In this document: positions 13,247 to 42,824 of the stretch, in pieces
Position numbering within the stretch: position 1 is the first letter of the stretch
Layout: each line of letters begins with the position of its first letter
Assembly (NCBI GenBank): GCA_964603585.1
Contig: CAZRVK010000004.1
Location: 64,438 to 128,437, forward strand
Length of the DNA stretch: 64,000 nt
Origin: an uncultured Planctomycetales bacterium
Lineage (GTDB): Bacteria > Omnitrophota > Gorgyraeia > Gygaellales > Profunditerraquicolaceae
Reading direction: 5' to 3'
Made by a program: the position numbers and the translations under genes
Notes under the pieces: generated by a model
The model's database searches: none
What the model saw: the letters and a program-made list of their open reading frames with translations, nothing else
Told to the model about the DNA's origin: nothing

Positions 13247-14044
13247 ATGAAATATTTTAACGGGTTATATTGTATACATCTTGAATTGACCAGTCGCTGC
13301 AATAAGAATTGCTGGATGTGTGGAAGAAGGAAAATAGACCGGGATTATCCAGAATTAGCTCTTGAATATGGCGATATGGATTTTGATTTAGTAAAGAAGA
13401 TCGCTTTTCAGCTGCCAGAAAACATTGTAGTGCAATTCCATAATAATGGTGAACCTTTATGTTATCCGCGGTTTGGCGAGGCGGTAAGGTTATTTAAAAA
13501 GCAGATAAAATGTGTTGATACAAATGCCAAATTGATCGTTCAAAAAGCGGATGAAATAATCTCTAACTTAGATACGATAACCATATCGGTTATAGAGAAT
13601 GATCCAGAGATGGATGAACAGTATCGATTAGTTAAGCAATTTTTAAAACTGAAAAAAGATAAAAAGCCGAATGTAATTTATCGTTGTTTAGGGCAGATTG
13701 ATGTAAAACCATGGAAAGAGTTAGGCGGAATAATTGCGACCAGGACATTGCATAATCCGTTAGGCAGTTTTCAGTATAGAAGATCTCCTACTGTGCCAGA
13801 GATAGGGATATGTCTGGAGATATTAAATCATCTGGCAATCAATAGGTTGGGAAAGGTTTCTCTTTGTGTTCGTTTTGACCCTAAAGGTTTGGGGATTATC
13901 GGAGATGCTAATCTGATGCCATTGGTGGATATCTGGAATAGCGAGAAAAGGAAGGAATGGGTTAAACATCATATTCAGGGGAATAGGGTTAAAATACCTT
14001 TTTGCAGTCATTGTGATTATTGGGGGGTAGCAACTTCTTCATGA
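13247..14044 (+). CDS. Radical SAM protein (small; CxxxCxxC plus C-terminal Cys pairs)
   Basis: LTSRCNKNCWMCGRR contains CX3CX2C, and a C-terminal CSHCDYWG. The track start at 13223 is TTG; the ATG at 13247 is preferred. Confidence 0.5.
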   Translation: MKYFNGLYCIHLELTSRCNKNCWMCGRRKIDRDYPELALEYGDMDFDLVKKIAFQLPENIVVQFHNNGEPLCYPRFGEAVRLFKKQIKCVDTNAKLIVQKADEIISNLDTITISVIENDPEMDEQYRLVKQFLKLKKDKKPNVIYRCLGQIDVKPWKELGGIIATRTLHNPLGSFQYRRSPTVPEIGICLEILNHLAINRLGKVSLCVRFDPKGLGIIGDANLMPLVDIWNSEKRKEWVKHHIQGNRVKIPFCSHCDYWGVATSS

Positions 14045-14097
14045 ACATTATGATATCGTGAAAAATTGCTGTCGTAAATGAAAAAGGATGGTTATGA

Positions 14098-15633
14098 GTG
14101 AAGAAGATATTATTGATTTATCCTAATCAGCAGGAAGTTGGCTGTAAACCCCCGGCTGTTTCTACTTTAGCCGCGGTAGTTAAAAATGCCGGATATGGTT
14201 TTAAGCTGTTAGATTTAACCCCCTATGAAATTATCTCCGGGATAACTTCCAAGGAAATAGGAGAAGAACGGTTTGAATACAAGAAGGTATCTAATCCGGA
14301 ACGTTTTCCTGCGCGGATTAAAATGTCTTTCGATGATTTCAAAGAAATACTGCGCAAGGAGATAGAGTCGTACCATCCTGATCTGATAGGCTTTACCACT
14401 ATTATTCATTTCTTTTCTTTAGCGAAGAAGCTGGGTGAATTTATCAAGACTTTTTCATCTGTGCCTATCATTGTTGGTGGAGTGCATCCTACAGCTTGTC
14501 CGGAAGATGTTATCCGGGAATCCTTCGTTGATATTATCTGTATTGGTGAGGGAGAAGGGGCGTTGCTGGATTTAATGAATCGCATTGATGAGGGTAAAGA
14601 CATAACTCGGATAAAAAACCTTTGGGTAAAGCAAAATAACAAAATATATAAGAATCCCTTGCGTCCGATCATTGAGGATATAGATACTCTGCCGGTTCCA
14701 GATTGGGATGTATTCCCCCAAATACAGTTTTATAAGCCTTATATGGGGCACGTATATAAGTATGGGGATATTGAAAGAAGCCGGGGATGTCCTTTCAGCT
14801 GCGGTTATTGTATTAATCCTTATACGCATGCGTTATACGGCAAGAAAAGCTTTTACCGGGTAAAATCAACCGCTCGGATGATGGAAGAGCTAACGGTTCT
14901 TAAGGATAAATATAAATTAGAGTTCATCAGGTTTTGGGATGAGTTATTTGTCGCTAACCCTGATAAATTTGCCGAATTCAGCCGGGCATATGCCAAGCAA
15001 ATTAAACTGCCTTTTACGATAGAGACAACAGGTGAAAGCATTAATGACGAAACAGCTCGTCTGCTTAAGGATATGAATTGCCAAAGTGCCAGTATTGGAT
15101 TTGAGACCGGCAGTGAAGATTTACGTAAACGGATCTTAAATAAAAACACAAAAAATGCTGTTTATTTGAATGCTTTTAAGACTTTAAAGAAATTCGGCAT
15201 TCGCACGGTTGCCTTTATCATGCTGGCTATCCCGGAAGATAGCGAAGCGAATTATTGGCAAACAATACGTTTCCTTCAAGAGGCAGAAGCTGATACTATT
15301 TGCGTAAGTTTTTTATATCCCTTCCGGAATACCGCTATTCGCAATAATTATGCGCAGATATATCAAAAACTTTATCCTCACATTGATGAAGATATCGCAA
15401 ATACTAAGTTGGATATTTATCCGGTGTGTACAGATGTTCCTAAGGAAAGGTGGTTAGAATTTGGCAATTTAATGCCGATTTATAAGGAAATGCCTGAATG
15501 GCTTTGGCCCTTGATCAATAAGTGCGCTAAATCAAAAGATCCCAAAGATGCGGAATATTTGAGATTTCTGAAACAAATAATTTATAAGAAGAAATACGGT
15601 GAATGGCCTGATAATGATGATAACAGATCGTGA
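14098..15633 (+). CDS. B12-binding-domain radical SAM enzyme (class B radical SAM, putative methyltransferase), copy 1
   Basis: N-terminal cobalamin-binding Rossmann-like domain (KKILLIYPN..VGGVHPTACPED) and radical SAM site RSRGCPFSCGYCIN. GTG start. Confidence 0.7.
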   Translation: MKKILLIYPNQQEVGCKPPAVSTLAAVVKNAGYGFKLLDLTPYEIISGITSKEIGEERFEYKKVSNPERFPARIKMSFDDFKEILRKEIESYHPDLIGFTTIIHFFSLAKKLGEFIKTFSSVPIIVGGVHPTACPEDVIRESFVDIICIGEGEGALLDLMNRIDEGKDITRIKNLWVKQNNKIYKNPLRPIIEDIDTLPVPDWDVFPQIQFYKPYMGHVYKYGDIERSRGCPFSCGYCINPYTHALYGKKSFYRVKSTARMMEELTVLKDKYKLEFIRFWDELFVANPDKFAEFSRAYAKQIKLPFTIETTGESINDETARLLKDMNCQSASIGFETGSEDLRKRILNKNTKNAVYLNAFKTLKKFGIRTVAFIMLAIPEDSEANYWQTIRFLQEAEADTICVSFLYPFRNTAIRNNYAQIYQKLYPHIDEDIANTKLDIYPVCTDVPKERWLEFGNLMPIYKEMPEWLWPLINKCAKSKDPKDAEYLRFLKQIIYKKKYGEWPDNDDNRS

Positions 15634-15651: not shown

Positions 15652-17040
15652 ATGAAAATACTTTTGGTTGTATATGACAATGATTCTTGTGTTTCTGTAT
15701 TTCCGTTAGGGACTGCTTATATCGCAGCGGCTTGCCGTAATGCCGGACATGATGTCGAGATATATAATCAGGATGTTTATCATTGGCCAGAATCACATTT
15801 GGTTGAATTCTTAAACCGAGAACATTTTGATGCTGTTGGATTGGGCATAATCGGCGGGTATTATCAATACCGAAAATTATTATATATCTCTGAGGCAATA
15901 AACAAAGTAAAGAAAAAGCCTTTTTATATCCTGGGAGGTCATGGTCCCTCTCCGGAACCGGAGTTTTTCCTAAGAAAAACGAAAGCAGATGCGGTAGTTA
16001 TTGGTGAAGGGGAATCAACGATAGTTGATCTGCTTGAGGCGATTGAGAATAATAATGATTTATCTTCTGTGGAAGGTATAGTTTATCGTGATGGCGACAA
16101 ATGCAGTACAACGGCTATTAGAAAGCCAATCGCGGATATCGATAAAGTTATTTATCCTGCCTGGGATTTATTCCCGATTGATCACTACGTGCTTCTAAGA
16201 GACCCGGGAATGGTCAATAGCGATAGGTATATGGCAGTCATAACCGGAAGAGGGTGTCCTTTTAGCTGCAATTTTTGCTATCGGATGATGCCAGGATTTA
16301 GGCCAAGATCGATCGATAGTATCATAGAAGAAATTCGTATATTGCAGTTGGACTACGGCATCACGTATATCGAGTTTGTGGATGAGCTTTTGATGAGTTC
16401 TCTGCAGAGGACTATAGAACTTTGCGAGAGTTTTATAAAAGCAAATATTAAGTTGAAATGGAATTGCAATGGGCGTCTTAATTATGCGAAGCCTGATGTT
16501 TTAGCTCTGATGAAAAGAGCAGGCTGTGTTTTCATAAATTATGGTATCGAATCTTTGGATGAGACAGCTTTGAAGGCGATGAATAAAGCACTTACAGTTG
16601 ATCAAATCGTTAATGGTATAGATAATACCTTAAAGTCAGGAATAAGCCCGGGGTTCAACATAATTTTCGGCAATATTGGAGAGAACCGGGAGTCCTTGGC
16701 TAAAGGGGTAGATTTCTTGCTCAAATATGATAATCATGCTCAAATGCGGACAATAAGGCCGGTTACTCCTTATCCGGGTTCTGCGCTTTACTATTATGCA
16801 ATAAAAAAAGGTTTATTGAGGGATTGCCAGGATTTCTATGAGAACAAACATATTAATTCCGATCTGCTTTCGGTTAATTTTACAAGTTTAAGTGACGATG
16901 ATTTTCATGGCCTGCTTTATGAGGCAAACGAAAAACTAATCAGGAATTACTATTCCGCGAAACTTGATTCGACTTTAGACGCTGCAAGAAAACTATATTT
17001 GGAGCGTGATGTGTCTTTTCGCGGCTTCAGGCAGACTTAA
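15652..17040 (+). CDS. B12-binding-domain radical SAM enzyme, copy 2
   Basis: MKILLVVYDN..LGGHGPSPEPEFF (B12 domain) and TGRGCPFSCNFCYR. Confidence 0.7.
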   Translation: MKILLVVYDNDSCVSVFPLGTAYIAAACRNAGHDVEIYNQDVYHWPESHLVEFLNREHFDAVGLGIIGGYYQYRKLLYISEAINKVKKKPFYILGGHGPSPEPEFFLRKTKADAVVIGEGESTIVDLLEAIENNNDLSSVEGIVYRDGDKCSTTAIRKPIADIDKVIYPAWDLFPIDHYVLLRDPGMVNSDRYMAVITGRGCPFSCNFCYRMMPGFRPRSIDSIIEEIRILQLDYGITYIEFVDELLMSSLQRTIELCESFIKANIKLKWNCNGRLNYAKPDVLALMKRAGCVFINYGIESLDETALKAMNKALTVDQIVNGIDNTLKSGISPGFNIIFGNIGENRESLAKGVDFLLKYDNHAQMRTIRPVTPYPGSALYYYAIKKGLLRDCQDFYENKHINSDLLSVNFTSLSDDDFHGLLYEANEKLIRNYYSAKLDSTLDAARKLYLERDVSFRGFRQT

Positions 17041-17068: not shown

Positions 17069-17932
17069 ATGATGCCTAAGTTGAAATCATGTTACCTTTG
17101 TAAAAGTACCAAGCTTAAGGAAAAAAATGGCCGGGTTCGGGATAATCCTAATTTAAAAATCATGGAGTGCAGTGAGTGCGGATTAGTTTTCTTATCCTGC
17201 TTCGATCATATCGGTAACAATTTCTACGAACAGTCATTGATCCATGAAAAACCTGTAAATATCCAATCTTTGCTTAAAGATACATCTTGTGATGATGAGA
17301 GAAGATTTACTTGCCACAGGAGGCTGATTGAGAATAAATCTTTGCTTGATTTTGGCTGTGGTGCTGGGGGGTTTCTCTGCCGTGCCCGATCAACGGCTGC
17401 TTCGGTTGTTGGCGTTGAGGTCGAGATGCGTTTTAAGCCCCATTTTCAGAAAGAAAACATAGATGTATTCACCAGTATTAACGATGTAAGTGGCCGGTTT
17501 GATGTAATAACTATTTTTCACGTGTTAGAGCATATGAAGGATCCGGTAGATACTCTACGCAGATTGTCGGGAAAGTTAAGCGAAAACGGCTGTATAATCG
17601 TAGAGGTCCCATCCTCTGATGATGCGCTTTTAAAACTCTATGAGAATCCGGCTTTTTCGCAATTTGCTTATTGGAGCTGTCATTTATTCCTTTTTAATCC
17701 CGGTTCTCTTTCGCGTATTGCCAGGAAAGCGGGATTAAAGGCAAATTATCTTAAGCAAATCCAGAGATACCCGCTATCAAACCATTTATATTGGCTGGCA
17801 AAGGGAAAATCAGGCGGACATAAGATATGGGGCTTCTTGGATTCGCATGAGCTTGATACGGCATACGAAAAACAACTGGCTGCACTTGGGCTTTGTGATA
17901 CGATTGTGGGAAGTTTTTCAAAAATCAAATAA
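17069..17932 (+). CDS. Class I SAM-dependent methyltransferase with an N-terminal Cys4 zinc ribbon
   Basis: CYLCKST...CSECG zinc ribbon; motif I LLDFGCGAGGF; motif post-I/II FDVITIFHVLEH. Confidence 0.6.
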   Translation: MMPKLKSCYLCKSTKLKEKNGRVRDNPNLKIMECSECGLVFLSCFDHIGNNFYEQSLIHEKPVNIQSLLKDTSCDDERRFTCHRRLIENKSLLDFGCGAGGFLCRARSTAASVVGVEVEMRFKPHFQKENIDVFTSINDVSGRFDVITIFHVLEHMKDPVDTLRRLSGKLSENGCIIVEVPSSDDALLKLYENPAFSQFAYWSCHLFLFNPGSLSRIARKAGLKANYLKQIQRYPLSNHLYWLAKGKSGGHKIWGFLDSHELDTAYEKQLAALGLCDTIVGSFSKIK

Positions 17933-17949: not shown

Positions 17950-19446
17950 TTGAATTTGGAATCTTACCGGACATTCATTAAAAATAATCGTAGCCTTTTG
18001 ATCGGTCATCTTTTGATTTATGCACAAGGGATCATTCTTATGCCCATAGTGATAAAGTCGGCTGGGGTGGTGGTTTATGGCGGATATATTTTACTTTCTG
18101 GTTTGGTCGGTTTTATCTTTGGGATCTCTTCTTTTGGAGTTGGGTTTAACTGCGGGCGTTTTCTCCCCGGGATCGAAGCCAGAGAAGAGAAGAGGGATAT
18201 TTTTTATCCCCAATTCTGGTTTCAATTCTTAATGCTTGTTATTTTGGCTTTGATCTTCGATCTTTTTTATCCAGGTTTGAACCGGTTTTTAATAAAGGGT
18301 GAATTTGTTTTTTCAAAATGGCTTGTATCTATCCTTCTGGTTTCGAATTTATTTTACAGTCAGGCAAGCAGCTACTTTTTATCTACTCATAGGATACATC
18401 ATTTTAACTTCGCAACTGTGGCGCTGCCGTACATCAATCTTTTCTTGATTTTGGCGATTTATTGGATCAAGAAAGACCTATCCTTGAATATGCTGTTTTT
18501 AACTCAGATAATTACCTATCTTCTGATTGGGATCCCGTTATCCGTATTACTTTTTCGCGAAATTGGGGTAAAGCTGATTTTGCCGGATCTTAAGCAGCTC
18601 AAGAATGATATGCGGCTTGGCATTCCTTTACGGCTTAATTTTATAATGGATGTTGTTTTATCCTTTAGTGACCGCTATGTAATAACCTATTTTTTAAGCG
18701 TAGCGGCAGTCGGTTATTATAACCCGGGTTATGCTATCGGCTCTTTGACCCTTTTTCTGCCACGGGTTTTGGGGGTTGTATTACTTCCGCTTTTATCTAA
18801 AGCCATTGACTCTCATAGGGAAAATGAGGCTTATAATATGTTAAGTTATGCGATTAAGGCTTTTCTCTTAGTATCTATCCCTTTTGTTTTTGGGTCTATT
18901 GTTTTGAGCGCTCCGCTATTGAATCTGTTTGCTAACGCCGAGGTTTCACAACGAGCCTATATGGTAACACCAATAATCGCATTAGCTACTCTTTTCTTTG
19001 GTTTGAATATTATTCTTTCCAATGTCCTGTGGGTTAGATTGAAAACAGCCATTATATTCAAGATGAATATGTTGGCGGCGCTCATTAATCTTATGCTTAA
19101 TCTTATTTTACTCAATCTGTTTCGTGATGTTAGAGTAGCCGCTCTTACTACCCTAATCAGTTATTTTATTGCATTTATTTTCATTTATAATGCCGTGATA
19201 AGAGTTTGGCCGATTCGCCTGCAATGGCAGGTTGTCGTAAAAATTGTCATTGCTGCGGTATTTATGTCGGGTTTTTTGTATGGGGTATCATTTTGCCCGG
19301 TTAAGAAAATATACAACCCCTGGTTTCTTCTGATAGAAATAATGGCCGCAATAATTGCATATCTTTTTGCGCTCGTTTTTCTTAAGGCTTTTTCCAGTAA
19401 GGAATTAAAGTATTTAAAGAACTCATTAGCCTTCGATCTTAGCTGA
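17950..19446 (+). CDS. Wzx-type oligosaccharide flippase (MOP superfamily)
   Basis: About 12 predicted TM helices throughout, with polysaccharide-biosynthesis-protein-like topology. TTG start as annotated by the track. Confidence 0.55.
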   Translation: MNLESYRTFIKNNRSLLIGHLLIYAQGIILMPIVIKSAGVVVYGGYILLSGLVGFIFGISSFGVGFNCGRFLPGIEAREEKRDIFYPQFWFQFLMLVILALIFDLFYPGLNRFLIKGEFVFSKWLVSILLVSNLFYSQASSYFLSTHRIHHFNFATVALPYINLFLILAIYWIKKDLSLNMLFLTQIITYLLIGIPLSVLLFREIGVKLILPDLKQLKNDMRLGIPLRLNFIMDVVLSFSDRYVITYFLSVAAVGYYNPGYAIGSLTLFLPRVLGVVLLPLLSKAIDSHRENEAYNMLSYAIKAFLLVSIPFVFGSIVLSAPLLNLFANAEVSQRAYMVTPIIALATLFFGLNIILSNVLWVRLKTAIIFKMNMLAALINLMLNLILLNLFRDVRVAALTTLISYFIAFIFIYNAVIRVWPIRLQWQVVVKIVIAAVFMSGFLYGVSFCPVKKIYNPWFLLIEIMAAIIAYLFALVFLKAFSSKELKYLKNSLAFDLS

Positions 19447-19482: not shown

Positions 19483-20466
19483 ATGAACATTAAGAAGAAA
19501 GTTCTGGTTACGGGTGCCGGAGGATTTATTGGAAGCCATCTGGTGGAAAAATTGTCTGCAAGGGGATATCATATCAAAGCCTTTGTGCATTACAATTCGC
19601 GGAATTCATGGGGCTGGCTGGAAACTCTAAATTGTAAAACCCCTTTGGAGGTAATTACGGGAGACATTCGGGATATTGATATTGTAAGAGGCGCGATGCG
19701 CGATGTTAAAATGGTTTTTCATCTTGCCGCTTTAATAGGAATCCCATACTCATTCTGTTCTCCGCAAGCATATTTTCAGACTAACATTAAAGGATCTTTG
19801 AATATTTTACAATCTGCAATGGATTTGGATGTTAAAAAAATTATCATTACTTCTACAAGTGAAATCTATGGGACCGCCCAGTTTGTCCCGATCAGGGAAG
19901 ATCATCCGATTAACCCGCAATCTCCGTATGCGGCGACAAAATCCTCTGCTGATCTTATTGCCGTGTCATTCTACCGTTCTTTTAATTTGCCGGTTGCGAT
20001 TGTTAGACCGTTCAATACTTACGGTCCAAGACAATCGGCGCGGGCAGTAATTCCGACGATCATTACTCAAATGCTTAATTCTAACAATAAAATCAAACTC
20101 GGGGCTTTAAATCCAACTCGGGATTTTACATATGTTGAAGATACTGTCGAAGGATTCATCCTTGCCGGTGAATCTTCAAAGACTGCAGGAGAGATTATTA
20201 ATCTTGGAAGTGGTTCGGAGATATCAATTAGTGACTTGGCACGGTTAATCTCGAAATACCTCAATTGCAGTCTAAAAATAGAGTCTGAAGATGATCGGAA
20301 ACGCCCGGTCAATAGTGAAGTCACCAGGTTAATTGCGGATAACAGCAAGGCTAAGCGGCTATTGAAATGGATGCCTAAATACAACTTAGAAGCCGGTCTT
20401 AAAAAAACAATTGCCTGGTTTAAGAATAATCAAAGCCTTTATAAGCCCTGGATTTACAATGTATAA
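19483..20466 (+). CDS. NAD-dependent sugar-nucleotide epimerase/dehydratase (extended SDR)
   Basis: VLVTGAGGFIGSHLVEKL, the YAATKSSADL (YxxxK) motif, and a C-terminal substrate domain. Confidence 0.75.
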   Translation: MNIKKKVLVTGAGGFIGSHLVEKLSARGYHIKAFVHYNSRNSWGWLETLNCKTPLEVITGDIRDIDIVRGAMRDVKMVFHLAALIGIPYSFCSPQAYFQTNIKGSLNILQSAMDLDVKKIIITSTSEIYGTAQFVPIREDHPINPQSPYAATKSSADLIAVSFYRSFNLPVAIVRPFNTYGPRQSARAVIPTIITQMLNSNNKIKLGALNPTRDFTYVEDTVEGFILAGESSKTAGEIINLGSGSEISISDLARLISKYLNCSLKIESEDDRKRPVNSEVTRLIADNSKAKRLLKWMPKYNLEAGLKKTIAWFKNNQSLYKPWIYNV

Positions 20467-22227: not shown

Positions 22228-22229
22228 GG

Positions 22230-34301: not shown

Positions 34302-35852
34302 ATGGAACGGAAAGAAATCCTGCTTGTTAACGCAGTTAATCCCGGTGGACGGATCCAGGTCCCGGTAGGGTTAGTTTACCTTGCCAGCAATCTAAAGCGG
34401 CATGGCTATGACTGTGAGGTTTTTCATGTTATTGATTCATGTACGTTAGGTATCTGCCGGAATAAAATACTTTCTAATCGTTACCTTTTTGTTGGTTTTT
34501 CTTTTTGGATGGGGCCATCGGCTTTAGATCTTTTGACCCTTGCGGAAGCCGCTAAATCCCGGGGAATCCCAACGGTAGTGGGTGGTAAGTTTATCAGTAG
34601 TTTAAAAGCGGATGCAATGAAGGAAAATTCTATCGATATCGCAGGGATCGGGTATTGTGAAGATACGATTGTGCAGATCGCGGCGGCCTTATCGAACAAG
34701 GAAAAGCTTTCGAATATCCCGGGGATCATTTATCGTGATGATTCCAAAGGGATAATTACTGCGGCACAAAGAATTTGCACGGACAAGGATCTTGACCGGT
34801 TTGATTACGATCTTAGTTTTATAAAGGATTGGAGCCTGTATCTGCAAAGGGATCATAGCGGTCTGGTCCTTTTGGACCCTCTTGAAACACAGCGGGGGTG
34901 TTTATTTAATTGCAGTTTTTGTTTCCATAGCAAGGATGCGATTTACCGTGACGAAAACGGTAAAAAAAGTGTTTTGACGCATTCTGTGGATTATGTGATC
35001 GATAAGGCAAAGTATTTAAAGAGAATAACTGGTGTTAATAAGATCACTTTTTGTGATGATGAGTTCTGGATCGATGGCAAGCGTTCGCTTATGATCATGG
35101 AAAAGTTGAAACAAATAGGGATCGAGCTTCTATATATGCGTATCAGATTTTCGAGTATCGATAAGGATATGCTGAAAGAATTGAAGAGATTGAATGTCAA
35201 TTCGGTTGCCTGCGGGCTGGAATCCGGATCAAAACGCATCTTCAAATTAATGAATAAAGGGCAATCCTTCGAGACTATAGAAAAGAAACTAAAGACTTTA
35301 AACGATGAGAAAATGAAGGTAAATACTTCGATTATTCTGGGTAATCCGACCGAAACAAAGATGGAAGTGATTGAGAGTGTGAGGTATGCGCTTAGTTTAC
35401 GTAAAATTAATCCGAGTTTAAATATCGTTGCCTTTGTTTATGCTGCCTTGCCGGCAACGGTTTTTGGAGAATTAGCGGAACAGGAAGGATTCAGGAAACC
35501 AGACAGCATTAAGGGGTGGGTCATTGCCAGTGCCGAAAATCATGAAATCCTTCAGCAATGGTTGCCTTGGTATAATGAGAAAGAAAAGAAATTCATGAAA
35601 AGGCGGGATGATTATTTCAGTATCAATTCTTCCCTGGTAGAGATCTTGTATGGTTACCGGAAGCGGCCAGCCTATATGCGCCTGCTTACGCCTGTGTTTT
35701 ATTTGTTCGAACGAATAACATTTTATAGGCTATATTATTGGAATTTTTCCTTTCCTTTCGATGCGAAATTGTTTTTGCTGGCATCTTTGATTTTCCGCCG
35801 TTTACGCCTGCATTGGATGAGAGGAAAGTCTTCAATTCACAAACCGAGATGA
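34302..35852 (+). CDS. B12-binding-domain radical SAM enzyme, copy 3
   Basis: N-terminal B12-like domain (EILLVNAVNPGG..VGGKFISS) and TQRGCLFNCSFCFH. Confidence 0.7.
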   Translation: MERKEILLVNAVNPGGRIQVPVGLVYLASNLKRHGYDCEVFHVIDSCTLGICRNKILSNRYLFVGFSFWMGPSALDLLTLAEAAKSRGIPTVVGGKFISSLKADAMKENSIDIAGIGYCEDTIVQIAAALSNKEKLSNIPGIIYRDDSKGIITAAQRICTDKDLDRFDYDLSFIKDWSLYLQRDHSGLVLLDPLETQRGCLFNCSFCFHSKDAIYRDENGKKSVLTHSVDYVIDKAKYLKRITGVNKITFCDDEFWIDGKRSLMIMEKLKQIGIELLYMRIRFSSIDKDMLKELKRLNVNSVACGLESGSKRIFKLMNKGQSFETIEKKLKTLNDEKMKVNTSIILGNPTETKMEVIESVRYALSLRKINPSLNIVAFVYAALPATVFGELAEQEGFRKPDSIKGWVIASAENHEILQQWLPWYNEKEKKFMKRRDDYFSINSSLVEILYGYRKRPAYMRLLTPVFYLFERITFYRLYYWNFSFPFDAKLFLLASLIFRRLRLHWMRGKSSIHKPR

Positions 35853-36772
35853 ATAGACGATTAAAAGAGCATTTAAAGCTGCTCTTTAGGAAAATATTTG
35901 AGGCAGGGCAGAATATTAATATGAATATTCTGCCCTGCCATTGGTATTCCGAGGTCCCTTATATTAAAGATCTTCGTTCTAACGATTATTGGAAAAGTCC
36001 ATATAGCATGTTTGGGATTCATGGTATTGATATAGCCGATCAGCTTGCTTTCCTGGGAAAATGTTGTAAAGATGAATTGATAGACAGGCAGAAAAAACAG
36101 GATATTTATGCTAAGGCATGCCGGTTTAACGGAGAAACAGGTTTTGGGCCTATCGAGGGGGATTTTTTATATTGTTTCATACGTACAGTAATGCCGTTAA
36201 AGATCGTGCAGGTAGGTTGTGGAGTTTCTACCGCAGTCATGCTGCTGGCGGCAGAAGAGGCAGGGTATTCTCCGGAGATAATTTGCATTGATCCTTATCC
36301 TACACGTTTTTTAATCCAAATGCATAATTCCGGGAAAATTAAGCTTGTGCAGGAAAAGGCGCAATTAGTGCCAATCGAGTTATTACTGGATATGGGCACT
36401 AATGGGTTCTTGTTTATTGATTCTACCCATACTGTCAAGCCCGGGAGCGAGGTAAATCGTTTAATTTTAGAGGTTTTACCAAGATTAGCAAAAGGTATCT
36501 GGGTGCATTTTCATGATATCTATTTCCCTTATGATTATTCTAGGAATATTTTGACCAAAGACTTATTTTTTACGAATGAAAGCGTTTTGCTGCATAGCTT
36601 CCTCATAAATAACCGTCAGTTCTCGCTGATGTTGAGCTTGAGTATGCTGCATTATTCGGTCCCAGAAAAGGTGAAGGAATTTCTTCCTAATTACGATCCA
36701 GAGAAGAATGAATGCGGCCTTGCTCTTTCTAAAGGGCATTTTCCTTCTTCGCTATATTTAAAATCGATGTGA
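35849..36772 (+). CDS. Class I SAM-dependent methyltransferase (Methyltransf_24/CmcI-like)
   Basis: IVQVGCGVSTAVML and FLFIDSTHTVKPGSE. The track ORF begins at 35738 and overlaps the upstream gene; the ATG at 35849 (ATGA overlap with the upstream stop) is preferred. Confidence 0.45.
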   Translation: MNRRLKEHLKLLFRKIFEAGQNINMNILPCHWYSEVPYIKDLRSNDYWKSPYSMFGIHGIDIADQLAFLGKCCKDELIDRQKKQDIYAKACRFNGETGFGPIEGDFLYCFIRTVMPLKIVQVGCGVSTAVMLLAAEEAGYSPEIICIDPYPTRFLIQMHNSGKIKLVQEKAQLVPIELLLDMGTNGFLFIDSTHTVKPGSEVNRLILEVLPRLAKGIWVHFHDIYFPYDYSRNILTKDLFFTNESVLLHSFLINNRQFSLMLSLSMLHYSVPEKVKEFLPNYDPEKNECGLALSKGHFPSSLYLKSM

Positions 36773-36782: not shown

Positions 36783-37685
36783 ATGAATAAATTCTCAAAT
36801 AAAAATATACGAAATTTTGTGTCGGATCTGGAGTTATCCGGATCTGTTATTTTAAAACAGGATGTTGTTTGGCCGCGAATTTCTATTGTTACCCCTTCTA
36901 TGAACCAGGCTAAGTTCTTAGAACGGACGATTTTAAGTGTCCTGAACCAAAATTACCCCAACTTGGAATATATCATAATAGATGGGGGTTCAACTGATGG
37001 CAGTCTGGAAATAATACGAAAATATGAGAGATATCTGTCTTATTGGGTAAGTGAGCCGGATAATGGCCAAGCTCATGCAATCAATAAAGGATTTAAGAAT
37101 AGTACTGGAGACATTCAGGCCTGGCTTTGTTCGGATGACCTGTATTTGCCGGGATCCTTGCTTAAAGTCGGCCGCATATATGCGCATAAAACGGCGGATC
37201 TTATCTATGGTAATTTTTATTTAATTGACCAGTGGGATAAAATCATTGATGAGTACCGGCATGTTCAATATTCGCGGTTATTCTCGAAATCCGCAATTAT
37301 CCATGGCTTGTTCAGTATTGCCCAACCAGCAATGTTTTGGAGCAAAAAACTGTTTTTAAAGGTTGGCGGAATCGATGAGAAATTTTGTAATGTCCTTGAT
37401 AATGATTTGATAATAAAATTTTTACTATCGAATCCAATTGTAATCCATTCTCGCCAGTTTTTTGCGTGTGAACGCATACATCCGGGACGTAAGACTGAAA
37501 GGCTAAAGCATATTGCGGTTTCGGAAATTGAATCGGTTAGAAAGGTATATGCCGTGGGGGTAAAAACAGGATTCTCTCTTAGATCATCGGTTTATTTGCT
37601 AAAGCTGTTTTTGTTTCTCAAACAAGGTGATCTTTTTTGGTTGCTAAGCCGTATCCTCCGGCGTGTTTGTTCCAAGAAAACTTAA
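36783..37685 (+). CDS. Family 2 glycosyltransferase
   Basis: RISIVTPSMNQAKFLERTILSVLNQNYPNLEYIIIDGGSTDGS, then a DxD-like CSDD. Confidence 0.8.
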   Translation: MNKFSNKNIRNFVSDLELSGSVILKQDVVWPRISIVTPSMNQAKFLERTILSVLNQNYPNLEYIIIDGGSTDGSLEIIRKYERYLSYWVSEPDNGQAHAINKGFKNSTGDIQAWLCSDDLYLPGSLLKVGRIYAHKTADLIYGNFYLIDQWDKIIDEYRHVQYSRLFSKSAIIHGLFSIAQPAMFWSKKLFLKVGGIDEKFCNVLDNDLIIKFLLSNPIVIHSRQFFACERIHPGRKTERLKHIAVSEIESVRKVYAVGVKTGFSLRSSVYLLKLFLFLKQGDLFWLLSRILRRVCSKKT

Positions 37686-37717
37686 CTTAATGCGTGTGAT
37701 CACGCGATTATATAATT

Positions 37718-39028
37718 ATGCCAAATCGCATATCTCTGAATAAAAGATGGCTTGAACTATTCCCCGTTTCTCTGATAGTTGCTGCTTTTGGACCTTATAT
37801 ATTCCCGGGATATGGTATCCGATTTGAACATATCTGGATTTATTCTTTGCTATTGTTTATTTTCCCTTTATTCATTTTAGACCAACGGTCGATGTTATGG
37901 CCTTCGGCTTTATTGAAAATCCTTATACTGTTGTTTGGGATCACGTTTTGGACTTTAGGTGCTTCTTTTTTCGGCGGATACCCAAGAGAGTCTTTCTTGA
38001 AGTATGTTTCCTCAATAGAAAATTATATCCAGCCAGCGGCAATCATCATTTTGATGGCCGCATTGGCAAAATATCAGGGATACGAATATTTTTTTCATTG
38101 TTTGCGCCGGTTGTGCATAGTCCTTATATCGCTGCTTTGTCTGAATTCTATTATTGCGGTACTTTCCATCTTTTTAAGTGTAGAGAATGTCATGCGCCCG
38201 TTTGTCGAAAGCTGTTTTGGCGGAAAATCGGTTTGGGAGCTTGCTTTTTCGATGGGGAGGTATTCGGGGATTTTTAATCAGCCTGTTGAAAGCGGATTGA
38301 TGTATTCTTTAGGCCTTCTTGCCTGGGGTTATCTTAACCGTATTTCAAAACAAACCGGCTTTTGGGAATATATTATACTGTTTTTTTTGCTCATTGGCGG
38401 AGCCTTATCTGTTTCTAAAGTGTTAATCTTTGGAGGGATCCCTTTACTGATCATTTATTGGAACCCGTTCTTAGATTTTCGTAAGAACTTTAATGTTCAG
38501 TTTATTCTGGCTGCAATTGTCGCCTGGGCAGGGATACTCTATATTACCCATTTCTGGGATGGTTTGAGTTTCTTGACCATGTTTTTTACGGTAAAGGGAA
38601 ATACTAATTTGCTGGAACTCTATACTGCGGGTAGATTTGGGGCCGAATACAGTACCATGATATCGCATTTTAATGAGGTGTGGCAGAAATCCCCATTATA
38701 TGGTTTTGGTTTCGGGGCTATTTCTTGTTTTGATAACGCTTATTTGGAGTTCTTTTTACAAGGAGGTTTAGTTGCTTTGACCGGATATTTGACTTTACTT
38801 GTGGTATATTTTCGTTATAGTTTAAGTGCGTTTAGAAAAGGGTATGAGGAAGGCAGATTATTATTAGGAATGTTTGTTTTGGTAATGGGGGGAAGTTTAG
38901 GTGCTCCGGTTTTGACGATAAACCGTTTTTCAACGGTTTTTTGGGTGTTTAGTGCGGTTCTTATGTTTATGTCGCAAGCACATTTAAGGATGAGCACAAT
39001 AGACCGGCCTTCATCTGAAGGATATTGA
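37718..39028 (+). CDS. Wzy-like polysaccharide polymerase / O-antigen-polymerase-family integral membrane protein
   Basis: About 10-11 TM helices with a large loop near the C-terminus. No soluble catalytic motif. Confidence 0.4.
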   Translation: MPNRISLNKRWLELFPVSLIVAAFGPYIFPGYGIRFEHIWIYSLLLFIFPLFILDQRSMLWPSALLKILILLFGITFWTLGASFFGGYPRESFLKYVSSIENYIQPAAIIILMAALAKYQGYEYFFHCLRRLCIVLISLLCLNSIIAVLSIFLSVENVMRPFVESCFGGKSVWELAFSMGRYSGIFNQPVESGLMYSLGLLAWGYLNRISKQTGFWEYIILFFLLIGGALSVSKVLIFGGIPLLIIYWNPFLDFRKNFNVQFILAAIVAWAGILYITHFWDGLSFLTMFFTVKGNTNLLELYTAGRFGAEYSTMISHFNEVWQKSPLYGFGFGAISCFDNAYLEFFLQGGLVALTGYLTLLVVYFRYSLSAFRKGYEEGRLLLGMFVLVMGGSLGAPVLTINRFSTVFWVFSAVLMFMSQAHLRMSTIDRPSSEGY

Positions 39029-39030
39029 AC

Positions 39031-40215
39031 ATGCAGTATCCCAGGCTTAAGATTCTTGTATTTGTTGGATATTATATTCCAGGATATAAAGGGGGAGGGC
39101 CATTACGTGCCTTAGTTAATATGGTTGCTAAAATTGGGGGTGAATTTGATTTTAAAATTTTTACCTCTGATAGGGATTTACAGGAAAAACACCCTTATCC
39201 TGGGGTTTGCATTGATAATTGGAATAAAGTTGGTCAATCACGGGTTTTTTATAGCTCGTTGAAATCACGTTCATTTCGTGGGATCAGAAAGATCCTATTT
39301 TTTGCTCATCCGGATATACTTTATTTAAACAGTTTTTTCTCACCCGATTTTACCATCAAGCCTTTATTGCTTAGAAGATTGCGCCTGATTCCCAGGATGC
39401 CGGTAATTATGGCAGTCAGAGGGGAGTTTTCTCCAGCTGCGCTTTCCATAAAATGGCTTAAGAAAATGGTATATATTCTAATCTCAAAGGTCCTTGGCTT
39501 ATACGATGGGGTTATCTGGCAGGCATCGAGTGGGTATGAAGAAAAATATATCCGTCGCTGGTTTGGAAAGAAAGTCGCGGTCGAGATAGTTGCAGATTTA
39601 CCTCCGTCTCTGTCATTTTTATCCATTGATCCAGCGTTAAAACATAAAAAGGCCGAAAATTCCCTAAAAATGGTTTTTTTGTCCCGAATTTCTCGAATGA
39701 AGAATTTAGATGGTGCCTTAAAGATCTTGCACGGAGTAAAAGGCCAGATCTATTTTAATATATACGGGCCGGTTGAAGATAATAGATATTGGATGGAATG
39801 CCTTAAGATTATCCGCACGTTGCCAAGAAATATTGAAGTTAATTATTGTGGGAATCTTCCGCATGAGCAGGTTTTAGATTTACTTGGAACCCATGATTTG
39901 TTCTTTTTACCCACGTTAGGAGAGAACTTTGGTCATGTTATTATCGAATCATTGTGTGCCGGATGTCCTGTTTTGATCAGTGATAAGACTCCTTGGCGAG
40001 GTTTAGCGAAAAAAGGTGTGGGATGGGATTTGCCGCTTGATCAAATAGGCTTATTCCGGGATATTATTCATCAGTGTATTAATATGGATCATCTGCAGCA
40101 AATGGAATTGTCCGAAAGGGCTAGAGCATACGGTTTAGGAGTTGTTACTGATGAAACCCTGGTTAAAAGAAATCGTTCGCTTTTTTATAACACAATGCAT
40201 ATAATAAGAATGTAA
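39031..40215 (+). CDS. Family 4 (GT-B) glycosyltransferase
   Basis: C-terminal FFLPTLGENFGHVIIESLCAGCPVLISD (the E-x7-E-like GT4 motif). The ATG at 39031 is preferred over the track TTG at 39025. Confidence 0.7.
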   Translation: MQYPRLKILVFVGYYIPGYKGGGPLRALVNMVAKIGGEFDFKIFTSDRDLQEKHPYPGVCIDNWNKVGQSRVFYSSLKSRSFRGIRKILFFAHPDILYLNSFFSPDFTIKPLLLRRLRLIPRMPVIMAVRGEFSPAALSIKWLKKMVYILISKVLGLYDGVIWQASSGYEEKYIRRWFGKKVAVEIVADLPPSLSFLSIDPALKHKKAENSLKMVFLSRISRMKNLDGALKILHGVKGQIYFNIYGPVEDNRYWMECLKIIRTLPRNIEVNYCGNLPHEQVLDLLGTHDLFFLPTLGENFGHVIIESLCAGCPVLISDKTPWRGLAKKGVGWDLPLDQIGLFRDIIHQCINMDHLQQMELSERARAYGLGVVTDETLVKRNRSLFYNTMHIIRM

Positions 40216-40260: not shown

Positions 40261-41409
40261 ATGAAGGTATGTTTCCACATGTTTCCATATGATTTTTTAC
40301 TAAGAAACAAGTCGCGTTATTTTCTAGGATTCCTTTTAGCCGTTTTTTTTCTAATTTCTTTTCTAACCAAATATGCGGATTGGAAAATATATCGCTTAGA
40401 AGTTACTAATTCCGCCACAAATGATGGATTGAAGTATAAAAATATAGCCCAGCAGTTCTTAAGTGGAGAGGAACCTGCTGTTTATCTGAATAATTTCAGT
40501 TTAAGGCCGGCATTCATAATTTATTTAGCCGGTTTAATCGGGGTTTTTGGGTATAATTCTGATTTTATAATTTCCTTTATCAATATTGTTATAATTTCGT
40601 TTTTTTTGACTTTACTGGCATATGTTATTTTCAAAAAATACGGATTAAAAGGCTATTTATTGCCTTTTTCTGCAGCGGTTATACTTATCCTGGGTAATCC
40701 TTTGATATTGTTCTGGGCGCCTTTTATTTTGACTGAAATTCCGGCATTGAGCCTATTGATTTTGGGTTTTTGGATTTATTTCCGGGTGGATAATAAATTG
40801 AAATATTTGTTTTTGGGGATTGTCTATGCTTTGGCTTTTCAGGTAAGGGAAGTATCGGTTATCAATTTTTTGGCATTGCTTATAACCATGCTGATCACAA
40901 AAGAATCAAAATGGAATATTGCAATAACCATTTTTTTCTATTTTGCTGTGATTATTCCCTGGATAGTATATCTTTATGTGCATAACGTGGAATTGCCATT
41001 TTTAAGCCATTTAGGTCGTGCGATATCTGCCAGGGAAATCATTAATCATACTGGGGCAATGCCAGTTTTACCTCGATTCCTGACTAATATAGCAAAGCAT
41101 TACTACTTATATATCAGTGATAGCACTTCAATTGATACCCATGGATATTATTCGATTGCGTATACTTTCTTCATGTATCTTATGGGATGTATAGGATTAA
41201 GGCAACTTTCTTCCGGAACGGACAAAAAAGAATTCTATTTAATAGTTTTATCCTTGTTTTTAACTGCTATTTTCTATGGTTTTGTAGGGGAAAGCCCGTA
41301 TATGAGAGGGCGGGTTTTAGTGGAATATTTGCTAATCTATTCAGGGACAGTTGGTTTGATTTCTCTCTTGGAAGGTTTAAGGCAAAAACGCGGGCAAAAG
41401 CTATGTTAA
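40261..41409 (+). CDS. Polytopic membrane protein, possibly a GT-C-type glycosyltransferase (ArnT/PMT-like topology)
   Basis: About 10 TM helices and an early extracytoplasmic loop with acidic residues (LSGEEPAVYLNNFSLRP). No firm motif. Confidence 0.3.
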   Translation: MKVCFHMFPYDFLLRNKSRYFLGFLLAVFFLISFLTKYADWKIYRLEVTNSATNDGLKYKNIAQQFLSGEEPAVYLNNFSLRPAFIIYLAGLIGVFGYNSDFIISFINIVIISFFLTLLAYVIFKKYGLKGYLLPFSAAVILILGNPLILFWAPFILTEIPALSLLILGFWIYFRVDNKLKYLFLGIVYALAFQVREVSVINFLALLITMLITKESKWNIAITIFFYFAVIIPWIVYLYVHNVELPFLSHLGRAISAREIINHTGAMPVLPRFLTNIAKHYYLYISDSTSIDTHGYYSIAYTFFMYLMGCIGLRQLSSGTDKKEFYLIVLSLFLTAIFYGFVGESPYMRGRVLVEYLLIYSGTVGLISLLEGLRQKRGQKLC

Positions 41410-42824
41410 AAGCTTTACTCATTAATCCTGTAAGATTCAATATGATAAAACCACCGGTCCCGGAAAGTGTAAATGACCCTAAAGAAGCGGGGTATTATCC
41501 TCCGATAGGCCTGCTTTATATCGCGTCGATGGCAGAAAATGTTTCTGGATGCTCGGTTAAGGTTTTAGATGCCGATGCAGAACAATTCAATTATCTCCAA
41601 ATCGAAGAATTTATCAGCAAGGAATCCCCTGATATCGTCGGTATCCAAACAATGACCTATACTTTGATTGATTCTTTAGAAACTGCCAGGATAGCAAAAA
41701 AGGTCGATAAAAATATCCACGTTTGCCTGGGAGGTCCGCATATCAGCATTTATCCCGAAGAAACATTGAGATTTCCGCAGGTTGATTCGGTGATTCAGGG
41801 TGAAGGAGAATATGTGTTCGCTGATCTGCTGGATGCGATCATCAAAAACAAGGATTTATCTTTAGTCCCGGGGATTATATTTAAGAAAAACGGCCGTATA
41901 ACCTCAACTGGTTATCGGGGTTTAATCGAAGATATTGATTCTTTACCATTCCCTGCGCGCCACTTGGTTTCGATGAATAAGTATTGGTCGATTTTATCAG
42001 GTTCATCTGGCGTTACTACTATTATTACCAGCCGCGGCTGTCCTTTTAATTGTATTTTTTGTGAACGGCCTCATTTGGGTAAGAAATTTCGTTTTCGTTC
42101 AGCAGGCAATGTGGTTGACGAGTTGCAGCAGTCTTATGAAAATGAGGTCAGGTCATTTATTTTTTATGACGACACTTTTACTCTTAATAAAAACCGGGTA
42201 TATGATATTTGTGATGAGATACTAAAACGCAGGCTTAAAATTGATTGGAGCATTCGTGCACGAGTAGATTCGATAGACAAGGCAATGCTGGCTAAATTGA
42301 AATCTGCCGGGTGCCGGACTATTAATTTTGGAGTAGAATCCGGTAATCCGCAGATCCTTAAGGCCTTACGTAAAGATATCAACATTGAACAGATAAGAAA
42401 TGCTTTTTCCTGGTCGAGAGAACTTGGGATAAAAACATTGGCGTATTTTATGATCGGTAATCCTACAGAAAGCAAAGAACAAATAATGGAAACAATTGCC
42501 TTTGCCAAGGATTTATCTCCGGATTATATCAATGTAAGCCTTACTACTCCTTTTCCTGGAACTGATCTATATAAGCTGGGTATGGAAACTGGTTTATTCA
42601 AGTCAGATTATTGGGCAGAGTTTGCGCGTAACCCTGTGAAAGGGTTTTCGCCCAGGCTTTGGGAAGAAAAGCTTAGTTCGGAAGAACTTCATGATTTGCT
42701 CGCGTATGCTTATAAAAGCTTCTATTCCCAGCCGCGCCTGCTTTTACGGCAACTTTTGTCAGTCAGAGATCCAAGAGATTTAGTTAGGAAGATAAAAATG
42801 GGAATGAGGCTAATATTAAAGTGA
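41403..42824 (+). CDS. B12-binding-domain radical SAM enzyme, copy 4
   Basis: B12 domain (LKALLINP..IGLLYIAS..CLGGPHISIYPEE) and TSRGCPFNCIFCERP. Start at ATG 41403, an ATGTTAA overlap with the upstream stop; the track start at 41187 is rejected. Confidence 0.7.
   Translation: MLKALLINPVRFNMIKPPVPESVNDPKEAGYYPPIGLLYIASMAENVSGCSVKVLDADAEQFNYLQIEEFISKESPDIVGIQTMTYTLIDSLETARIAKKVDKNIHVCLGGPHISIYPEETLRFPQVDSVIQGEGEYVFADLLDAIIKNKDLSLVPGIIFKKNGRITSTGYRGLIEDIDSLPFPARHLVSMNKYWSILSGSSGVTTIITSRGCPFNCIFCERPHLGKKFRFRSAGNVVDELQQSYENEVRSFIFYDDTFTLNKNRVYDICDEILKRRLKIDWSIRARVDSIDKAMLAKLKSAGCRTINFGVESGNPQILKALRKDINIEQIRNAFSWSRELGIKTLAYFMIGNPTESKEQIMETIAFAKDLSPDYINVSLTTPFPGTDLYKLGMETGLFKSDYWAEFARNPVKGFSPRLWEEKLSSEELHDLLAYAYKSFYSQPRLLLRQLLSVRDPRDLVRKIKMGMRLILK

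Follow-up and report, generated by a model that had tools for sequence, protein, structure and literature searches.

Radical SAM enzymes with B12-type domains in a nonulosonic acid glycan locus of an uncultured Omnitrophota bacterium

Why would a single bacterial glycan locus encode five radical S-adenosylmethionine (SAM) enzymes, four of them with a cobalamin (B12)-binding-type domain, and on which sugars might they act? This question is raised by a 64,000-nucleotide stretch of DNA from an uncultured Planctomycetales bacterium (placed by GTDB in the Omnitrophota; contig CAZRVK010000004.1, positions 64,438–128,437), which we call the window and whose open reading frames (ORFs) we designate by their start positions. 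We give a somewhat better than even chance to the following explanation, taken as a whole: the window is a single, long, unidirectional locus for glycan assembly (of the O-antigen, S-layer, or capsule type), in which the five radical SAM enzymes tailor sugars at three stages, and class B C-methylation is the most likely chemistry of the four B12-type enzymes. In this chemistry, a 5'-deoxyadenosyl radical would take a hydrogen atom from an unactivated sugar carbon, and methylcobalamin would supply a methyl group to the same carbon.

The window ORFs were scanned against Pfam (gathering scores) and NCBIfam (curated cutoffs). A first-pass annotation had described ORFs 14098, 15652, 34302, and 41403 as B12-binding radical SAM enzymes, and the scans agree: PF02310 and PF04055 both exceeded the gathering score in each protein (Table 1), and the motifs CPFSCGYC, CPFSCNFC, CLFNCSFC, and CPFNCIFC were each found once, in the ORF named. 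ORF 13247, described as a further radical SAM enzyme, has a CNKNCWMC motif and a SPASM/twitch domain, with a Radical_SAM score (PF04055, 28.5 bits) slightly under the cutoff of 29.5; CX3CX2C is present in all five proteins. The class I methyltransferases at 17069, 30655, 35849, and 43748 were also confirmed by Pfam domains. The start codons used for ORFs 13247, 35849, and 41403 are likely the true starts. That of 41403 is favored because it gives the length of 473 amino acids (aa) common to the homologues, and the starts of 35849 and 41403 each overlap the stop codon of the gene upstream.

The gene content and order are shared with a metagenome-assembled genome (MAG) of a Candidatus Omnitrophota bacterium at 46%–83% amino acid identity. 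The radical SAM genes (66%–79%) are among the best conserved, and the glycosyltransferases share 46%–59%. Because this second MAG keeps both the genes and their order, the arrangement is under selection rather than due to chance. The four B12-type genes had been described as copies interleaved with nonulosonic acid (NulO) synthases and glycosyltransferases. The interleaving is real (the NulO synthases are at 10660 and 22230), but the genes are old paralogues and not copies: pairwise comparison, proposed to tell duplication from distinct subfamilies, gave 23%–31% identity, that is to say, distinct subfamilies. Recent duplicates or decaying copies, redundant or functionless, would have in their favor only the presence of several such genes within one locus, and we assign this possibility next to no probability. 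The CX3CX2C motif is intact and the ORF full-length in all four genes; a separate orthologue in the second MAG, better conserved than the glycosyltransferases, exists for every one; and family size and genomic context differ for each of the four. The duplicate explanation was therefore rejected on the basis of the low pairwise identity and the separate orthologues.

The assumption that such enzymes are rare in polysaccharide clusters fails for uncultured anaerobes. Homologues of 41403 number more than 6,691 at E<1e-10, and of 40 metagenome loci sampled (each at least 9 kb), 15 encode 2–6 B12-type paralogues; multi-enzyme loci are common in anaerobes of this kind. In Kuenenia stuttgartiensis, a single glycan locus encodes four B12-type radical SAM proteins, one of which is a 70% orthologue of 15652, together with a further radical SAM protein, three class I methyltransferases, YfhO, and glycosyltransferases of families 2 (GT2) and 4 (GT4).

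ORFs 15652, 14098, and 13247 and the nonulosonic acid pathways

Homologues of the ORF 15652 protein share 59%–80% identity and are nearly all exactly 462 aa long. They occur in Firmicutes (Desulfoscipio geothermicus, Heliobacterium chlorum, Desulfosporosinus, Syntrophomonas, Thermincola, and Wukongibacter) and in Omnitrophota, WOR-1, anammox Planctomycetes, Nitrospirae, Chloroflexota, Gemmatimonadota, Chitinophagales, Proteobacteria, Patescibacteria, and one Woesearchaeota MAG. The isolates D. geothermicus DSM 3669, H. chlorum DSM 3682, and Wukongibacter baidiensis, which carry orthologues, have public genomes. The ORFs of 36 genome loci encoding this family were compared with the window proteins, and the 29 loci of at least 9 kb were counted; 40 loci of the 41403 family served as the control (Fisher test). 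A homologue of NeuB and/or of the cytidine monophosphate (CMP)-NulO cytidylyltransferase was present within 10 kb in 27 of the 29 loci, compared with none of the 40 controls (p=3.6e-17), and Maf was also present in 13 15652-family loci.

The orthologue often lies inside the pathway, with LegB/LegC on one side and PtmE/LegG/LegI on the other, for example in the order LegB-LegC-radical SAM-PtmE-LegH-LegI. In D. geothermicus, it is flanked by flagellins and Maf (the flagellin NulO transferase) and by a complete LegB-C-H-G-I, PtmE, and LegF set. A second context, which is the arrangement of the window, consists of a NeuB without the C-terminal SAF domain (SAF-less NeuB), a cytidylyltransferase, an aminotransferase, and a 13247-type radical SAM gene (L015, L021, L022, L008, L030, and L038; L numbers denote comparison genome or metagenome stretches). 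Compared with the canonical legionaminic acid (Leg) pathway (LegB, C, H, G, I, F, and PtmE) and Maf flagellin islands, the window shares LegB, PtmE-like, LegI, LegG, CMP-transferase, and WbuX/HisH/HisF-type genes. It differs in the radical SAM link, which is absent from the papers returned by our literature searches. We regard the 15652 family as an integral part of legionaminic-acid-type operons in many anaerobes, and the window member may also act on the second NulO pathway of the window (19483–27916).

Two additional features were observed near 15652 orthologues. In three loci of Desulfosporosinus and other Firmicutes (L018, L019, and L032), a 356-aa protein and a FemAB/Acetyltransf_6-like protein adjoin NeuB and the 15652 orthologue; the window counterparts are at 50209–51279 and 52208–53323 (+). 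This co-occurrence hints at an aminoacyl or peptide decoration of the NulO. In the Woesearchaeota, Wolfebacteria, and Nitrospirae MAGs (L008, L030, and L038), the 15652 orthologue and the SAF-less NeuB have a GHMP kinase (all three loci) and an SIS-domain isomerase (L008 and L030) in their vicinity, which are heptose-pathway-like. The partner that the SAF-less synthase condenses with phosphoenolpyruvate may therefore be something other than a hexosamine.

ORF 14098 belongs to a narrower group with about 15 close orthologues, of which the only named ones are from Omnitrophota. One orthologue (63% identity) sits between a cytidylyltransferase and a SAF-less NeuB plus class IV aminotransferase, in a locus without 15652, and relatives at 39%–40% identity also lie in NulO clusters, beside NeuB, Epimerase_2, CTP_transf_3, and further B12-type radical SAM genes. 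Because relatives of both 15652 and 14098 are found there, at least two B12-type subfamilies recur in NulO clusters. Orthologues of the SAF-less NeuB (ORF 10660) adjoin orthologues of 15652 or 14098 in L015, L008, L030, L038, L043, and L045; the class IV aminotransferase (ORF 12249) is kept beside the 282-aa NeuB in L043 and L045; and the nine-gene cassette from the GDP-mannose 4,6-dehydratase Gmd to the methyltransferase is conserved in its entirety in the Omnitrophota MAG.

The protein encoded by ORF 13247 aligns over its full length with BtrN, the butirosin 2-deoxy-scyllo-inosamine dehydrogenase (PDB 4m7t; 32 bits), with CX3CX2C and the 4 auxiliary-cluster cysteine residues in register. The two proteins have similar lengths (265 aa for 13247 and 270 aa for BtrN), and both have an adjacent aminotransferase, as in oxidation followed by transamination. 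They would differ in that (i) the substrate of 13247 would be an NulO or its precursor, not an aminocyclitol; and (ii) the partner aminotransferase is of class IV or III, not of the DegT type. Orthologues at 62%–71% identity lie beside 15652 orthologues in L015, L021, L022, and L043. An aminotransferase was present near every 13247-type gene found, of class IV in the window and L043 and of class III in L015, L021, and L022; in L045, the 13247-type gene is absent and two short-chain dehydrogenases/reductases are present instead. Judging from this similarity, 13247 is probably a dehydrogenase working with the adjacent aminotransferase and is unlikely to be a methylase. C-methylation by the B12-type enzymes is plausible but unproven.

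Taken together, the nine genes of the cassette (8537–17932) would make a modified CMP-activated ulosonic acid, and we infer the substrates and the stage of action of each enzyme from this context. The SAF-less synthase and the cytidylyltransferase would build and activate the acid; 13247 would oxidize a sugar hydroxyl to a ketone, which the adjacent aminotransferase would convert to an amine; and 14098, 15652, and the methyltransferase 17069 would add further modifications.

The polyprenyl-phosphate-sugar module and ORF 34302

ORF 41403 belongs to a different setting. Hundreds of its homologues have near 50% identity and a length of 470 aa, and relatives were found on at least 583 stretches of metagenome DNA. 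A GT2 of the type encoded by ORF 42832 lies within 1–3 genes on the same strand in 13 of the 15 41403-orthologue loci having upstream DNA. In L046–L049, the operon reads PMT/PMT_2 (a GT-C-class glycosyltransferase), GT2, radical SAM, and LPG_synthase_TM, as observed in a Deltaproteobacteria MAG; a polysaccharide deacetylase (Polysacc_deac_1) is nearby in L046. The 42832 protein matches ArnC (PDB 9bhc, 3e-18), DPMS (5mlz), and GtrB (5ekp), and its partial NCBIfam matches to AglJ (94 bits, cutoff 325), ArnC (76 bits, cutoff 529), and PpgS remained below the cutoffs. All of these relatives attach a sugar to polyprenyl phosphate. Transmembrane (TM)-like segments lie between residues 216 and 280, after the GT2 domain.

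This arrangement resembles the ArnC/ArnD/ArnT and GtrA/GtrB/GtrC systems in that a loading enzyme (42832) is combined with a GT-C-like protein (40261), and a tailoring enzyme stands between loading and transfer, as ArnD does. By contrast with ArnC/ArnD/ArnT, tailoring here would be performed by a B12-type radical SAM enzyme and a small methyltransferase, not by a deformylase. A second precedent is HpnJ, which acts with HpnI and HpnK in the synthesis of the hopanoid cyclitol ether: HpnI, a GT2, places an amino sugar on the lipid, and HpnJ, a B12-type radical SAM enzyme, then remodels it. The pairing of a GT2 with a B12-type radical SAM enzyme is common to both, and a deacetylase is near in L046. 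HpnJ (TIGR03471) is also the best curated partial match of 41403, over the full length, with a score of 236.7 bits that does not reach the cutoff of 577.6 bits. The systems further differ in that the lipid here would be polyprenyl phosphate, not bacteriohopanetetrol, and in that a probable GT-C protein follows, which implies onward transfer of the sugar. These relationships suggest that 41403 tailors a lipid-linked sugar. In the module as we picture it (40261–44329), the GT2 42832 would load a monosaccharide onto polyprenyl phosphate; 41403, perhaps with the methyltransferase 43748, would modify the lipid-linked sugar at the cytoplasmic face of the membrane; and the probable GT-C protein 40261 would transfer the modified sugar to the glycan outside it.

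An extreme stacking of paralogues was observed in L077 (contig Ga0315274_10002614, ~1–14.7 kb), where seven ORFs, five of them consecutive, match 41403 best and are accompanied by a 42832-like GT2 and a 43748-like methyltransferase.

ORF 34302 is a rare lineage: there are 108 representatives at E<1e-30 among 1.84 billion, about eight of them above 35% identity, in addition to the 75% orthologue in the second MAG (L002). With the two proteins 31429 and 33090 and two methyltransferases, it may form a third module (30655–36772) that would provide an additional tailoring step.

Class-B-type proteins thus do lie within a NulO glycan locus, as the first-pass annotation held, but the enzymes belong to separate modules and not to a single methylation program, with two enzymes linked to NulOs and one to polyprenyl-phosphate sugars. 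We also considered that the radical SAM enzymes act on a lipid, a peptide, or a cofactor instead of the glycan, which we judge quite improbable. The partial matches do include enzymes of lipids (the ladderane enzyme, HpnJ, and HpnR) and of ribosomally synthesized and post-translationally modified peptides (ApyD and rSAM_ocin_1), and the context of 34302, whose neighbors 31429 and 33090 have no family match, is uninformative. However, 15652 lies consistently within Leg operons across unrelated phyla, relatives of 14098 are in NulO clusters, and 41403 orthologues lie beside the polyprenyl-phosphate GT2. Start and stop codons overlap those of glycan genes, and no precursor-peptide-like or lipid-pathway gene turned up in the ORF and family scans of the window, which were not aimed at such genes. 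On the basis of context, a non-glycan substrate was rejected for three of the four B12-type enzymes, the exception being 34302.

Chemistry of the B12-type enzymes

The first-pass annotation named the GenK, Fom3, and TsrM types as examples of class B methylating enzymes; none of the four proteins is close to these. The best curated partial matches in NCBIfam are BchE, HpnJ, PhpK, the ladderane enzyme, and ApyD, and their scores fall well short of the cutoffs: (i) BchE (TIGR02026, cutoff 481 bits) scored 204, 146, 112, and 64 bits with the four proteins; (ii) HpnJ scored 86–112 bits with the three proteins other than 41403; (iii) AprD4 (NF033070, cutoff 500 bits) scored 138 bits with 41403, 94 with 15652, 34.5 with 14098, and 28 with 34302; and (iv) the methylase models PhpK, KedN5, HpnR, MgmA (TIGR04014), TsrM, and rSAM_ocin_1 were below the cutoff for all four. 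The closest solved structures by sequence are AprD4, MgmA, CysS, TokK, and OxsB, all distant. In AlphaFold 2 models of 15652 (predicted local distance difference test score 85) and 41403 (88.5), the N-terminal domain has alternating strands and helices of the Rossmann type, and that of 41403 matches the corrinoid proteins 4jgi, 1y80, MtaC (2i2x), and MetH (1bmt). Fold searches with both models put AprD4 level with or above true B12 enzymes. The four enzymes are predicted from their sequences to use cobalamin. Methylation is not inferable from family placement, because the nearest families and structures include the non-methylating AprD4, HpnJ, and BchE.

Precedents for C-methylation come from antibiotic pathways. 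The substrate of Fom3 is CMP-linked, which would also be true of CMP-NulOs. GenK, GenD1, Fom3, and MoeK5 share with the window proteins the N-terminal B12-type Rossmann domain, the CX3CX2C core, and a carbohydrate-pathway setting (enzyme list in PMC12931638); they differ in that curated models of them were not among the matches and in that the setting here is surface-glycan or flagellin NulO biosynthesis.

The main alternative is that some or all of the four enzymes perform non-methylating radical chemistry on the same sugars, such as deoxygenation through AprD4-like dehydration of a diol or amino alcohol, HpnJ-like contraction of the ring of a lipid-linked amino sugar, epimerization, or chain-extending C–C bond formation. 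AprD4, the radical SAM 1,2-diol dehydratase of apramycin biosynthesis (PDB 6fd2), is itself a sugar-acting enzyme and is the top sequence and structure match of 15652 and 41403, and HpnJ acts on lipid-linked glucosamine made by a GT2, in line with the GT2-radical SAM pairing of 41403 and the Polysacc_deac_1 gene near it in L046. The largest group of the B12 radical SAM superfamily is also the least explored, and it holds the non-methylating BchE, HpnJ, and ladderane enzymes (2026 review, PMC12931638). M. gryphiswaldense is reported to contain a CMP-linked ulosonic acid whose backbone is extended to C10 (bioRxiv 10.64898/2026.04.20.719630), so that unexplained carbon-skeleton chemistry does exist in such sugars. 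On the other hand, the AprD4 and HpnJ scores given above are far under the cutoffs; the AprD4 sequence similarity is limited to the radical SAM core, while the N-terminal domains score as B12-binding and resemble corrinoid proteins; and no AprD3-type reductase partner adjoins 15652 or 41403. AprD4, in spite of its related domain, does not bind cobalamin (PMC12931638). In the similarity network of the review, every group with a characterized member includes C-methyltransferases (PMC12931638, section 6). We regard non-methylating chemistry as the less likely case and dehydration or rearrangement as a serious competitor.

Methylated glycans have been reported for Kuenenia stuttgartiensis, as have NulO variants giving oxonium ions 261, 275, and 289 (bioRxiv 10.1101/2020.12.03.409086) and CMP-NulOs shifted by +14.01 Da, a shift that was read there as O-methylation (bioRxiv 10.64898/2026.04.20.719630). 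The terms "radical" and "radical SAM" are absent from these Kuenenia and M. gryphiswaldense papers. We found no relevant literature linking radical SAM enzymes to legionaminic acid, NulOs, flagellin glycosylation, or polysaccharide, and the earlier statement that this chemistry is not described for NulO glycans holds for the literature searched. Magnetospirillum was not among the 36 matches of the genome scan for 15652, a scan by exact peptide patterns that does not imply absence.

Two side observations concern Kuenenia. In Kuenenia and other MAGs, NulO loci repeatedly encode a protein of the LIC12162 family (~600 aa) directly beside B12-type radical SAM genes, CMP-transferase genes, or both (Table 1); it may be an NulO transferase, and no homologue is present in the window. 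The 219-aa formyltransferase-like protein of the window (21568–22227, +), between the PtmE-like protein and LegI, parallels the formyltransferase of the Kuenenia Leg cluster, for which N-formylated NulOs with a free amine have been reported (bioRxiv 10.64898/2026.04.20.719630). The legionaminic acid of the window may be N-formylated and/or may carry an acetamidino group from WbuX/HisH/HisF.

The following points weigh against the explanation that we favor: (i) the five radical SAM proteins and the four methyltransferases all stayed below the cutoffs of the NCBIfam models; (ii) HpnJ, BchE, and the ladderane enzyme, among the best curated partial matches, are not methylases; (iii) the nearest solved structure for 15652 and 41403 is AprD4, a sugar diol dehydratase without cobalamin, and the fold scores of AprD4, TsrM, CysS, MgmA, and OxsB are nearly equal, so that structure is undiscriminating; (iv) non-methylating members are indistinguishable from methylases by sequence or structure (PMC12931638, section 6); (v) the B12-domain score of 34302 is marginal, and the protein has no GEGE motif, which the other three have; (vi) the match of 13247 to BtrN is weak (E 9e-7); (vii) the GT-C assignment of 40261 is based only on its own 8 TM-like segments and a precomputed PF13231 hit of its orthologue; and (viii) the three class I methyltransferases of Kuenenia could explain its +14 Da shift. 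C-methylation still ranks first among the single chemistries; we put its chances at or just under even for 15652 and 14098 and lower for 41403. A wider generalization is tentative and in our estimate rather doubtful: the 15652 family would be an unrecognized, widespread enzyme of Leg-type NulOs that C-methylates, extends, or rearranges the skeleton at the nucleotide-sugar stage, and the 41403 family would provide general radical tailoring of polyprenyl-phosphate sugars.

Layout of the locus and implications

According to the ORF listing and the family scans, nearly the whole window is a single glycan locus on one strand (+), densely packed, with a GC content of ~40%. Its upstream end, before the locus, encodes PriA, fmt, GAPDH, and a few other proteins, and a Wzz-like protein at 7519 is the first gene of the locus. 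Downstream of the methyltransferase 43748 are UDP-sugar epimerases/dehydratases, a GT4, and an initiating Bac_transf transferase, and the part further downstream encodes GNAT, DegT, and FemAB-like proteins, a PglF-like dehydratase, and a Wzy_C family protein. The features from the cassette to the polyprenyl-phosphate-sugar module are listed in Table 1. Searches of Pfam, NCBIfam, and PDB sequences yielded nothing significant for ORFs 31429, 33090, 29435, 37718, and 40261, and the methyltransferase 35849 has no orthologue in the syntenic Omnitrophota locus L002. The pair of MBOAT acyltransferase and single-TM partner also adjoins a 15652 orthologue in L034.

Table 1. Features of the glycan locus, with LIC12162 family members of comparison loci in the last row. 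Percentages are identities to orthologues in the syntenic loci L043 and L002.
Feature	Coordinates	Strand	Evidence
GDP-mannose 4,6-dehydratase (Gmd), opens the conserved cassette	8537..9691	+	Pfam GDP_Man_Dehyd 463 bits; syntenic L043, 72%
GDP-L-fucose-synthase-like epimerase/reductase	9676..10644	+	Pfam Epimerase; NCBIfam GDPFucSynFcl 294 bits (cutoff 500); L043 67%
NeuB-like ulosonic acid synthase, 282 aa, without C-terminal SAF	10660..11508	+	Pfam NeuB 240 bits; NCBIfam NeuB 247 bits (cutoff 400)
CMP-ulosonic acid cytidylyltransferase	11519..12214	+	Pfam CTP_transf_3; NCBIfam PseF partial, 103 bits
Class IV (BCAT / D-amino-acid type) aminotransferase	12249..13226	+	Pfam Aminotran_4 156 bits; NCBIfam partial matches below cutoff
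BtrN-like twitch radical SAM enzyme, probable sugar alcohol dehydrogenase	13247..14044	+	CNKNCWMC; SPASM 35.3 bits; BtrN match
B12-binding radical SAM, narrow subfamily (B14098)	14098..15633	+	PF02310 50.5 bits; PF04055 81.3 bits; CPFSCGYC
B12-binding radical SAM, widespread NulO-linked 462-aa family (B15652)	15652..17040	+	PF02310 64.1 bits; PF04055 77.9 bits; CPFSCNFC
Class I SAM methyltransferase, closes the cassette	17069..17932	+	Pfam Methyltransf_23 76 bits; L043 58%
Wzx/MATE-type flippase	17950..19446	+	Pfam MatE, Polysacc_synt, MurJ; 13 TM-like segments
Legionaminic-acid-type NulO pathway, nine genes: LegB 19483, PtmE-like CBS-nucleotidyltransferase 20499, short formyltransferase-like 21568, LegI/NeuB with SAF 22230, LegG/NeuC (hydrolyzing 2-epimerase) 23231, CMP-transferase 24419, HisF-like 25141, HisH-like 25992, WbuX amidotransferase 26690	19483..27916	+	Pfam and NCBIfam; LegB-type 4,6-dehydratase TIGR04180 471.3 bits (cutoff 475); 22230 TIGR03569 487 bits (above cutoff 400); 23231 TIGR03568 458 bits (above cutoff 236); WbuX 361 bits (above NCBIfam cutoff 203)
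MBOAT acyltransferase (27946–29427) and single-TM partner (29435–30595), probable O-acylation pair	27946..30595	+	Pfam MBOAT 93 bits; partner with a faint GDSL hint only
Class I SAM methyltransferase	30655..31428	+	Pfam Methyltransf_11, _31, _25; L002 68%
Two conserved proteins, 547 and 398 aa (31429, 33090), 5' of 34302	31429..34286	+	Syntenic L002, 65% and 56%
B12-binding-like radical SAM, rare lineage (B34302)	34302..35852	+	PF02310 35.4 bits (barely over cutoff 32.1); PF04055 72.3 bits; CLFNCSFC; L002 75%
Methyltransf_24 class I methyltransferase	35849..36772	+	Pfam 49.6 bits; ATG overlaps 34302 stop codon
Soluble GT2 (36783); nine-TM membrane protein (37718), may be polymerase; GT1/GT4 (39025)	36783..40215	+	Pfam, hydropathy, synteny
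Polytopic membrane protein, probable GT-C glycosyltransferase	40261..41409	+	8 TM-like segments; L002 orthologue (51%) with PF13231 PMT_2
B12-binding radical SAM, very large 470-aa family (B41403)	41403..42824 (alternative start 41187)	+	PF02310 89.2 bits; PF04055 96.2 bits; CPFNCIFC
ArnC/GtrB/DPMS/AglJ-like polyprenyl-phosphate GT2, C-terminal TM helices	42832..43755	+	Pfam Glycos_transf_2 (PF00535) 96.6 bits; PDB matches
Small class I methyltransferase	43748..44329	+	Pfam; 50%–51% homologues by GT2-radical SAM pair in L051, L077
LIC12162 members	L130 11475–13259; L132 12387–14186; L133 5546–7345; L035 2722–4530		L035 by BLAST similarity to Kuenenia protein

Additional features of the window were observed. 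Directly 3' of the Wzy_C gene, ORF 57630–59906 (+) encodes a 758-aa protein in which a spermine/spermidine-synthase-like domain (class I methyltransferase fold) is flanked by ~14 TM-like segments; it could conceivably transfer an aminopropyl or related group to the glycan. Two tandem paralogous GalT-like nucleotidyltransferases of the HIT family (341 and 331 aa; 1877–3900, +) lie 5' of GAPDH and do not belong to the glycan locus itself. Just 5' of the locus are genes for a lipocalin-like protein and a C1 (papain-family) cysteine peptidase (5224–7024, +), and a small winged-helix regulator (7160–7522) that follows the peptidase could control the operon.

The genomic links described here are firm and are undescribed in the literature searched; they are variants within the class B radical SAM superfamily. 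They are directly testable in cultured anaerobes, and mass spectra of CMP-NulOs and glycopeptides exist for Kuenenia stuttgartiensis. NulOs cap flagella, S-layers, and lipopolysaccharides and shape phage and immune recognition as well as surface charge, and their modifications so far comprise N-acyl, amidino, O-acetyl, and O-methyl groups added by conventional enzymes. If the explanation is correct, a conserved radical enzyme in the NulO pathways of many phyla would represent a new class of carbon-skeleton modification, and a role would be assigned to two sizeable groups of uncharacterized B12-type radical SAM proteins. If the wider generalization on the 15652 family also held, unassigned +14 Da and extended-backbone ulosonic acids from mass spectrometry would be explained, and C-alkylated or C10 sialic-acid-like sugars would be common in anaerobic bacteria and some archaea, on flagella, S-layers, and lipopolysaccharides.

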